Made by a program: the position numbers and the translations under genes | The notes under the pieces: model-generated | What the model was told of the DNA's origin: nothing | Database searches by the model: none | The model's input: only the letters and a program-made list of their open reading frames with translations | Shown here: positions 40,192 to 43,367 of the stretch, one piece after another | Numbering within the stretch: position 1 is the stretch's first letter | Layout of the letters: each line of letters opens with the position of its first letter | From: Tubulanus polymorphus | Lineage: Eukaryota > Animalia > Nemertea | Direction: 5' to 3' | NCBI RefSeq assembly: GCF_964204645.1 | Contig: NC_134026.1 | Location: forward strand, 17,766,150-17,830,149 | DNA length: 64,000 bases

Positions 40192-40293
40192 ATCACAAAA
40201 GAAGAGTTCACCAATTATTACGCGGGGGTGAGCGCATCCATCGATCAAGATGCCTACTTTGATTTGATGATGCGAACTGCTTGGAAAATCTAG
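40192..40293 (+). CDS. CAPSL: CAPSL alternative last exon A
   Basis: ttttgtttcgtag|[36 protein letters not shown]; phase 0; gives a 208-aa protein. Confidence 0.9.
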
Positions 40294-41555
40294 GTATCCA
40301 ATCGAATGGTGGTAGTTCATTATTAGATATATTTCTAATGAGATACATATATATATATATATATAGCTTATATCTCCATAGCATGCTTTCAATAATCTTT
40401 CAGCCTATGTAAAATGACAGTGGAACTTCATTATAATGATCTCAGATAGAATCATTCACCAAATAAAACCAGAATTATATCCCAAACAGGCAAATTCTAA
40501 TAATTCCACTAAAAAATGATTGGCTTATAACATATTTTCTGGTACTCTGATGGTTGTTGCAACGAGGTTCCACTGTAACATAAATTACAATTACCGGTAG
40601 TCATAAATTGATGGGGTACTGGTTATATGCAACTGTTTCAATCAGTGATTCCACTCATGGCAGGGGAGTGTTGGCTAGTAGATGGATAATTTTCAATGCT
40701 TCTATTTCTATCTGTATTTCAATTAAAATTCGTGCAACTTTTCTTACCAAATCAAATCAACTGCCAGTAATAACAATGAAAGCAAAAAACCAGAAATTTA
40801 TGTATTTCTATGAAATATATAAATTTACTGATTTTACTAGCATGTTACTGACAGTTCATTACATCAACTCATCAGACCTATGACTTGGAATTTAGTGACA
40901 TATCTTGTAAATCTACCAATTATGCCTGATAGCCTATGTCATTCAGATATTGCTGCCTAAAGTGGCTGGAAACTGAAATTTGGCTAGATAGTTTATTTGG
41001 ATGGAGGAAAGATATTATTATTCTGTCTTACCAAGTATAAGGTAGCTTGAACTGGATAATGTTTGTACTTTTCCATATAGCTTCATTATCATCAATATCA
41101 CAGATAGATGGAGGCCTGCGAGAGGTCCATTGGTGTCCGGCTAATTTGTTGATTTATTGGTTAAGGTGACAGGGTTTTTATGAAAGCTCTCTCACCCAGA
41201 TTATGAATATATCGCTGTCCAAGTGTAGTCTATTGGGATAAAACATCAAATCTGATAAGTATCAAGTACAGTAGACTCCACTTACCGTTAAGCCTGTTGC
41301 CTCTGAACATTTTGTGGCCTGGACAAAATATCTAAAATTTCCTAACCGCAATATATGCTTTGATAACCCAACATGGCTGAGACTGCCCCATGAATCGCTT
41401 TCCCCATAGAAAATTTATCGATCCAGCGAGATCTGAAGTGAGCGAGGTTTAGTGGGTTAGCTATTCTCCCTAGACCATTGACAGAATCGTCTCAGTAAAA
41501 TCATCTTTGCACCACTAATTTACCAAGAATTTGTTGCTTTTATTACTGCGTGTAG

Positions 41556-41663
41556 ATCACAAGGGAAGAATTTCTAAATTATTACGCCGGTGTCAGCGCA
41601 TCCATTGATCATGACGCTTATTTCGATCTAATGATGCGAACTGCTTACGGGTTATCAGGTTAG
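41556..41663 (+). CDS. CAPSL: CAPSL alternative last exon B
   Basis: ctgcgtgtag|[38 protein letters not shown]; phase 0. Confidence 0.85.
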
Positions 41664-43265
41664 ATGATCCCTAAAAGGTAATAATAGATTGAATTCGCTC
41701 GAATTGTTTTTATGTTAGATAACCGTTTACTAACTCCGCTTAAACAATGGCGCTTTCTTTGTTCATTAAGCTTTCACCTATATTACTTAAATGTTACCGT
41801 AATACTTGAAAATAGTATCAGTAAGGGCTTGGTAAGTGCTACACTGATTTTATTTTATGATGCGCTATCAATGGATTCCTGACAATTGCATTTTAAATTA
41901 AAGACAACAGCTTGATTCTGGATTATGTTTAACTTGATTGTAATGCAGGTATGAATCAATGGTCTGGAACCAACCCCTTTAGACATTCACCATTGTTAAA
42001 AGCGAGTCTTGAAAATCGATTTTTCAGAGAGCGGTTCGATTTAATTTCATGTGAGGTCCTGAGCTAAAAAGCCAGTGTTCCATTTAAAGTTTCAAAAAAT
42101 TTAAGCTTATAACGGCCAAGTTTGAATTGTTGTCTTTAAATACATGAAGTAACAAATAGTAATAACCATGAATTTTGTATTAACTTACCCTAGGTTTCAT
42201 GAAGAAGTTAACCTAGGACAACATTGTCCATGGAGACAACATTTCAAGCTTAACCGATATAAGCTTTAACCATTTCATGTAACCGGATTTTGGACAATGA
42301 AATTGTGACAAAAATTGTTGAATGTCTGAGAGAGTGCTCTCCAGCTGTAGCTTGATACCTGCTTAATTGCAAACATGAGATATCTACTAGTCTTTTAAAT
42401 AGAAACTTCTTGGGATGGTTCATGAATGACTGGACAGTGGCCAGTAACTCAAAAGTGGGTTGGTTGTTCATAATTAACATGATTACACTGTTACCATTGC
42501 ATTTATCCAATGGCTTGCTTCATACAACTATTGAGGAACTGGCCCCTGCCTTGAAATGTTGTGTTGTCTTACAGTTGGGTTATTTCATTTAACCAAAGAT
42601 GTCTGAGTTTCTATACTTGGTATCGACCTTACTGGTAATTGGGATATGAGAAAACTGACTTCAGGCTCAAAAGCCTTGGCCTTATTTGTTTTGAGCCTCC
42701 TCATTTCACTGACTCGGTGATTGAAATGAAACATCTCGTTTCATTTCCGGTAGGTGTGGTTGGTTTGTTAGGGACACCAGGGCCCAGTTACACTAAAAGA
42801 TCAAGGCCTAAATCGATTTAAGATCAACTAAGGAATTAAACCGATTTTAAGAGTTACACCTTTTTGTGAACTGGGCTCAGAGCATCAAATCAATCTCTAT
42901 CAATCACCCAAGACAATCAAATAAATGAATGACCAAAAGCAAATGAATGTGCTTTCTTGCGGCGAATGTGCGAATAATGTCTTATTTTGTGATTGTAGAC
43001 AATGATTTATTTGTGTTTCTATGTTTATGGGTCACTTAAAGACGTTCATATCATTTTTTGGTAACAAAAGCTTAAAGTGATGATATTTAGAATAGGTGAT
43101 ACATTGGTAAATGAAATTGAATATATAAATCACATGATGATATTGAATATTGCTGTTCATTTCAACCGTATCTGCATTTATTCATATCAAAATGTCTCTT
43201 CTATATCTATAAATCGAATTAAAATGAATTTGCATGCACTGAGGATTTTTTGCAATTCTTTTCAG

Positions 43266-43367
43266 ATACACCGCTCAGAATTTATCAACTACTATTCTGG
43301 AGTTAGTGCCAGTATTGATTCGGATGCCTACTTTGACTTGTTGATGCGAAATGCCTGGAACTTGTAA
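43266..43367 (+). CDS. CAPSL: CAPSL alternative last exon C
   Basis: ttcttttcag|[36 protein letters not shown]; phase 0. Confidence 0.9.

Follow-up and report, generated by a model that had tools for sequence, protein, structure and literature searches.

The locus analysed here, a stretch of 64,000 nucleotides from the nemertean Tubulanus polymorphus (hereafter the window), raises the question of why a calcyphosin-like gene (CAPSL) should carry its last coding exon three times over, and of what these copies contribute to its protein. By sequence inspection, copies A, B and C each present a phase-0 AG acceptor and a stop codon, and the three homologous intact exons of the original prediction were recovered with the same positions and peptides (Table 1). 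A tblastn search of the window with the whole protein returned exons 1 to 3, which together make up 175 codons, only once and the last exon three times, in agreement with the earlier claim that no duplicates of exons 1 to 3 lie between the copies. Exons 1 to 3 joined to A reproduce letter for letter the T. polymorphus RefSeq protein XP_074640343.1 (isoform X2), and joined to B they reproduce XP_074640342.1 (isoform X1); both are predicted models, identical to each other outside the homologous C-terminal region. No protein ending in C was found among the stored proteins, the RefSeq cluster comprising only two members, the A and B forms.

Table 1. Features of the T. polymorphus CAPSL gene, in window coordinates.
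Feature	Position	Strand	Remarks
CAPSL coding exon 1	20955..21091	+	ATG at 20955; 137 nt; GT donor; joined exons match RefSeq protein
CAPSL coding exon 2	21968..22145	+	178 nt; joined exons match RefSeq protein
CAPSL coding exon 3	35192..35401	+	210 nt; phase-0 end within EF-hand 4 loop; spliced to A in run X2
Copy A (C-terminal exon)	40192..40293	+	Cassette exon; GT donor directly abuts TAG stop; contig joints and RefSeq isoform X2
Copy B	41556..41677	+	Stop at 41661-41663; end at 41677 predicted; RefSeq isoform X1 is exons 1-3 plus B
Copy C	43266..43367	+	Start of terminal exon; A to C joint; intact frame
3' UTR after C, shared	43368..44500	+	Run X2 contig from C acceptor; matched as far as 44500

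The encoded protein presents the features of the CAPSL family, with a length of about 208 residues, four EF-hands, helical extensions at both the N- and C-terminus, and full-length similarity to named CAPSL proteins. The sequences flanking the three copies have in common only 4 nt of the acceptor and a dispersed repeat of about 100 nt, found after A and C at unrelated offsets, so that the dissimilarity of the flanks noted originally is borne out. We are confident that the locus is one CAPSL gene with three intact tandem copies of its last coding exon. Outside the window, T. polymorphus has a further calcyphosin-like gene, the paralogue P0169 (62% identical), which ends in a last exon of its own.

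Most of CAPSL intron 2 is occupied by a DIRS-like retrotransposon (23519-35173), the right end of which lies 18 nt short of exon 3. Its inverted terminal repeats are split, and a complementary region lies internally (repeats at 23544-23634/35037-35127, 99% identical, 34890-34951/35112-35173 and 23519-23565/34854-34900). It also has an RNase H Pfam match at 32598-33335, and reverse transcriptase and tyrosine recombinase motifs that were recognized by eye, without a Pfam match. It contains nested inverted-repeat elements (23809-30205), among them an inverted duplication of about 1 kb (23860-24841 against 26610-27590, 97-98%) and a tandem array near 27950-28630.

The comparison of A and B over 30 codons yields 11 codons with synonymous differences only and 3 with amino acid changes, while A and C are identical at 23 of 33 residues, a recount that agrees with the original figures. 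Over the same 30 codons, the pS/pN values are 0.67/0.058 for A-B, 0.84/0.215 for A-C and 1.01/0.199 for B-C, with Fisher p values for pS versus pN of 3e-8, 4e-7 and 1e-11, respectively. Across copies, pS ranges from 0.67 to 1.01 and pN from 0.06 to 0.24, indicating that synonymous sites are close to saturation and nonsynonymous sites are not. The pattern of substitution thus points to A, B and C being shaped by purifying selection, with past and present-day constraint not separable for C, and upholds the earlier proposal of an old triplication under such selection (Fisher p <=4e-7 in every pair).

The original prediction had treated this arrangement as a local oddity, and here it did not stand. 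In a survey consisting of cluster look-ups on 30 proteins and three homologue searches, 35 further named species from five phyla presented between two and five tails, with no differences across the preceding 160 residues; these species were chosen by eye from records with at least two tails and constitute positives, not a rate. They comprise Lineus (3 tails), Lingula (2), Lytechinus (2), 18 jawed vertebrates and 14 molluscs, with counts among the latter of 5 in Argopecten, 4 in Ruditapes and in Haliotis rufescens, and 3 in Pomacea. No second tail was found in the records for Bolinopsis, Mnemiopsis, Nematostella, Hydra, Ciona and Amphiura, which annotation gaps could explain. The CAPSL isoforms of ctenophores and Nematostella (P0202/P0175, P0156/P0177/P0194 and P0216/P0147) diverge upstream of the last exon, with 11 and 30 residues differing in the two pairs counted, and may represent a separate duplicated-exon event.

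Metagenomic sequences present the same layout. Of 79 loci, six (L001, L005, L007, L008, L010 and L024) are spliced CAPSL transcripts of a single unit in which the exon occurs a second time, intact; this downstream copy begins exactly at the homologous phase-0 codon and lies at -1, +5, +22, -4, -1 and 0 nt, respectively, from the end of the first stop codon. In L001, L008 and L010, the downstream copy completes the stop codon of the upstream copy. The six pairs have pS values of 0.52-0.89 versus pN values of 0.01-0.19. From the match to the Tubulanus case, we infer that the second copies in these transcripts are exons. Other metagenomic loci (L053, L056, L059, L061, L063, L066, L076 and L079) encode long proteins with 2 to 6 tandem CAPSL-like units, 41-51% identical to the query; their units are far apart, and they resemble the RIB57 and DMIP inner proteins.

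Based on these protein and transcript records, the multi-tail CAPSL layout is widespread in bilaterians. An exon tree of all animals (33 columns, 1 of 83 branches starred) places the vertebrate copies apart from the lophotrochozoan copies; because its cross-phylum resolution is poor, a single bilaterian origin and repeated duplication are indistinguishable in it. A tyrosine at position 206 is found in 12 of 96 copies, namely B, nine mollusc copies and two others. These might define one orthologous lophotrochozoan class, but both Patella copies carry Tyr-206, the position of such copies in the chain varies, and the tree does not group them.

In jawed vertebrates, the 36 copies of 18 species, analyzed unlabelled, define two classes (M and L) with one member each in all 18 species by PCoA, Ward and complete linkage, a split expected at random in at least 17 of 18 species with P = 1e-4; average linkage separates the copies in only 6 of the 18. 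A maximum likelihood tree brings the 18 M copies together (support 92/66, unstarred). The classes have typical residues at positions 178, 182, 186, 194 and 200: K178 occurs in 18/18 L and 3/18 M copies, T194 in 17/18 M and no L copies, and L200 in 18/18 L and 2/18 M copies. These sequence groupings indicate that two orthologous tail classes are kept in jawed vertebrates, from sharks to platypus.

The classified placental proteins end in M in 17 of 19 cases, and five of six marsupial proteins end nearer L. In the X1 isoforms of Panthera uncia and Ursus americanus, the tail begins in M and then passes into a full second exon resembling L, which places M upstream of L; these composite tails of snow leopard and black bear also show that the second exon remains in some placental genomes. 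Sminthopsis X5 has an M copy with changes at positions that are invariant elsewhere; by eye, Sarcophilus isoform 3 resembles a frame-shifted reading of M. Judging by these sequences, placentals seem to depend on one copy and dasyurid marsupials on the other, suggesting that one copy can suffice. In three RefSeq proteins of snow leopard, black bear and dunnart (P0341, P0343 and P0093), a splice from inside the upstream copy to the downstream copy leaves the exit helix partly doubled.

The apparent dependence of placentals and dasyurids on different copies gives weight to the possibility that the copies are near-equivalent, a duplicated last exon being cheap to keep and escaping decay through its own stop, with purifying selection maintained by a division of splicing among tissues. 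Most changes between copies are conservative, ten residues are invariant in all 96 copies, copy number varies from 2 to 5, and the separation of vertebrate from lophotrochozoan copies in the exon tree suggests turnover. Against near-equivalence stand two vertebrate classes whose typical residues last from sharks to platypus, and a mean distance of 4.4 residues inside the M class against 8.5 between classes. We therefore regard it as a serious explanation but, on balance, an unlikely one.

To relate these differences to the protein, we examined what the exon encodes. In an AlphaFold model (mean pLDDT 87.2), it accounts for the last part of the EF-hand 4 loop, the exit helix (178-189) and, after a linker, the final helix (195-206), in line with the earlier observation that the exon boundary falls inside the loop. 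The long helices of the model outside the EF-hands are 5-20, 25-34 and 195-206, with a short one at 146-149. The best sequence matches in the PDB are a 208-residue calcyphosin-like chain of 11YJ (E = 4e-81) and calcyphosin 3E3R (8e-62), with further matches to Tetrahymena RIB57, RIB22 and RIB35 and to trypanosomatid DMIP proteins, and a fold search concurs. Under standard EF-hand numbering, only two calcium ligands come from the exon, residue 177 (position 9) and residue 180 (position 12). The variable positions of the exon are 178, 179, 182, 186, 194, 196, 199-200, 203-204 and 206-208, and they lie on a single face of each helix (shuffle P = 0.006 for the C-terminal helix, 0.04 for the exit helix).

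Since the exon boundary lies inside the loop, the copies might tune the Ca2+ affinity of EF-hand 4, as the original prediction had suggested and as duplicated EF-hand exons do in the alpha-actinins ACTN1 and ACTN4 (PMC9741552). Copy C has a histidine at position 9, seen in only 1 of 96 copies, residue 177 varies beyond T/S in 6 of 37 genes (Tubulanus C included), and exit-helix residues could alter affinity indirectly. In contrast, A and B have the same ligands (T177 and E180), E180 is invariant in 96/96 copies and differs within none of the 37 genes, and most of the variable positions (178, 182, 186, 194 and 196-207) are not ligands, whereas one alpha-actinin exon loses the ligands themselves. 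The proposed affinity difference is thus weak for A versus B and could apply only to C, and we consider calcium tuning improbable as the purpose of the exchange; different C-terminal partners, the other possibility raised originally, fit better.

A candidate partner is suggested by structural work. Work on bovine and human CAPSL identified it as the principal protein inside the doublets of the transition zone, with its EF-hands facing away from tubulin and with helices H1 and H3 and loop L1 binding alpha-tubulin (bioRxiv 10.64898/2026.06.11.731632), and a second preprint concurs on its location (10.64898/2026.10.08.757802). Helix H3 probably corresponds to residues 195-206 of our model, with 146-149 as another candidate, the text of the preprint being without residue numbers. 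The exon would accordingly complete EF-hand 4, with positions 8-12 of its loop and its exit helix, and add a C-terminal helix that is probably H3. Because CAPSL sits on microtubules through helices outside the EF-hands, one of them probably encoded by this exon, we favor the tuning of tubulin contact as the leading functional reading of the tail swap, at slightly less than even confidence. Under this reading, the tail used would depend on the kind of cilium that a cell type bears. The placement of the variable positions on one face is in keeping with tuning, but any surface helix would show it, and conservation would be anticipated for a face that binds.

Evidence on how the copies are spliced comes from a 370-nt contig of run X2, which joins exon 3 to A and A to C through joints 35401->40192 and 40293->43266. 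Both are GT..AG joints at the exact exon edges, with no other letters, and the donor of A is the base immediately following its TAG. This evidence amounts to one contig of one run out of five public runs listed; the run type is not on record, and we take it as RNA because the joints fall exactly on exon edges. As the contig joins exon 3 to A and A to C, A is a stop-bearing cassette exon and C is 3' UTR in the A form. A second X2 contig, of 3138 nt, starts at the acceptor of C, shows no differing letters over 43264-44500 and, if colinear, would reach about position 46400. Contig depths were 151 for A, 266 for C and 13-25 for the introns, values that do not constitute a ranking of isoforms.

Of the three junctions by which the original prediction proposed to verify the isoforms, 35401->40192 was thus found in X2, and 35401->41556 and 35401->43266 were not seen in contigs. 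No B junction was present in contigs of X2 or X3, and no junction from exon 3 to C among the listed contig joints, contigs being prone to drop rare forms. The joint from exon 3 to A was absent from contigs of X1, X4 and X5, and that from A to C from contigs of X3; X2, X3 and X4 derive from one sample. In X5, which we guess to be RNA, the exons are without cover at 90% likeness, which says nothing on expression. For copy B, a candidate donor (AAG/GTAATA) lies 14 nt past the stop codon and is predicted to be used; another (CAG/GTTAGA), within the coding end of B, was set aside since RefSeq isoform X1 reads through it.

The copies had originally been described as mutually exclusive alternative last exons, a description not supported by the joining of A and C in a single transcript contig. 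Strict, Dscam-like mutual exclusion is at odds with this contig and with the presence of two copies in each of the six metagenomic transcripts, and a scheme in which each copy ends the transcript with its own poly(A) site is at odds with the onward splicing of A in the contig seen; an AATAAA at 40462 and an ATTAAA at 41897 would allow A or B to serve as the last exon in a minority of transcripts. A search for docking and selector pairing in 18 region pairs of this one species found no complementary run above shuffles, and the 25 longest of the 27 inverted repeats all lie elsewhere than among A, B and C.

Exclusivity instead arises at the protein level, where the first stop codon ends translation. 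The C-terminus (the last 33-35 residues) would be set by whichever copy comes first in the transcript, B would probably be spliced onward to C as A is, and skipping of both A and B would make C coding. A stop codon more than 50 nt before a junction is regarded as premature (PMC13187750). The stop codon of A lies 0 nt, and that of B a predicted 14 nt, before the last junction, and since both fall inside the 50-nt limit, the mRNAs would be expected to escape nonsense-mediated decay with no need for an exclusion device. Of the three isoforms originally proposed, the A form is supported by a spliced junction and RefSeq and the B form by RefSeq, and translated C was not seen and is inferred only. 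We consider it likely that T. polymorphus translates all three tails.

Alternatively, coding use may today be confined to A and B, with C recently turned into 3' UTR and retained because it provides the acceptor and the poly(A) region. Of the copies, C has diverged the most, it occurs only as UTR in the contig seen, and the RefSeq cluster holds just the A and B forms. Against demotion, C retains its frame, its stop position and all ten residues invariant across the 96 copies, for which the probability under random substitution would be 0.23, 0.054 and 0.005 at 0.05, 0.1 and 0.2 changes per site, respectively. Its HMM score of 78.4 (fifth lowest of 96) falls within the range of the other copies (76.3-88.7), and the downstream copy is intact in 6/6 of the other transcripts. 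Demotion would be compatible with these data if younger than about 0.05 substitutions per site, and we judge it rather improbable. Dead copies, pieces of a paralogous gene, and an assembly or retrocopy artefact are largely refuted as explanations of the extra exons and have very little probability left: a separate paralogue does exist and the type of run X2 is unrecorded, but the last exon of P0169 is 73-82% identical to A, B and C without an exact match and exons 1 to 3 occur once in the window, which assigns the exons to one gene rather than to the separate paralogues originally envisaged as a refutation, one 6811-nt contig of run X1 spans all three copies, synonymous sites are close to saturation with low pN, and a retrocopy would require many identical copies in X2 that are missing from X3 and X4, runs from one sample with it.

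Taken together, these data lead us to lean, by a modest degree, towards an account in which a three-copy CAPSL gene splices A as a cassette onto C, the first copy sets the tail, and the tail tunes microtubule contact and not calcium binding. A broader version is offered as a tentative hypothesis, which we consider possible but unlikely in its entirety: a bilaterian-wide splice switch in which stop-edged duplicate exons would swap an alpha-tubulin-gripping helix in the transition-zone spiral, tuning the bases of multicilia, sperm and sensory cilia. Jawed vertebrates would have fixed two classes more than 400 million years ago; later, placentals would have come to use one and marsupials the other, with the second exon persisting downstream in at least some placental genomes.

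CAPSL work treats a single protein, and fish, frog, bird, mollusc and sea urchin models have at least two tails; knock-outs, tags, antibodies and structure fits directed at the last exon may therefore reach one isoform only. The gene is also a candidate in human retinal vascular disease (PMC11392532). The 96 tail variants provide a natural series for testing the role of the C-terminal helix, and the stop-edged cassette exons exemplify how terminal exons can multiply without an exclusion mechanism. We found no published description of C-terminal exon multiplication in CAPSL or calcyphosin in the literature covered, to which subscription journals largely do not belong. The available text of the structure preprint deals with the canonical human CAPSL isoform only, the word 'isoform' appearing once in it (bioRxiv 10.64898/2026.06.11.731632).

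The closest known category is tandem duplicated exon substitution of the C-terminal type, in which, as here, tandem homologous exons give isoforms that differ only in a homologous C-terminus (PMC8373072, PMC9741552). This type accounts for 77 of 236 human events, with mostly conservative changes (PMC9741552). The supplementary tables of the human catalogue (PMC8373072, PMC9741552), in which TPM1 and PKM are present as controls, have no entry for CAPSL, and the supplement of PMC5740500 yielded no CAPSL match (without a positive control); absence from the human catalogue fits placental reliance on one copy. In the alpha-actinins ACTN1 and ACTN4, a duplicated exon likewise gives part of an EF-hand, and one copy loses its Ca2+ ligands (PMC9741552), whereas CAPSL keeps E180 in 96/96 copies and its exons carry stop codons. 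CAPSL shares with tandem duplicated exon substitution the tandem homologous exons, the otherwise identical isoforms and purifying selection on each copy, and differs from it in that at least one upstream copy is spliced onto a downstream copy instead of being excluded with it. Some upstream exons of tropomyosin also splice onto downstream ones. The tropomyosin genes (TPM1, Drosophila Tm1 and C. elegans lev-11) further resemble CAPSL in having three tandem 3' exons that encode homologous C-termini of a cytoskeleton-binding protein and arose separately across phyla (PMC9741552). Tropomyosin is, however, an actin-binding coiled coil and CAPSL an EF-hand microtubule inner protein, the copies of which are much more alike than those of tropomyosin (3-12 of 33 residues differ). 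The isoforms themselves are already in public annotation and their kind is known, so that CAPSL is a new case of tandem duplicated exon substitution.
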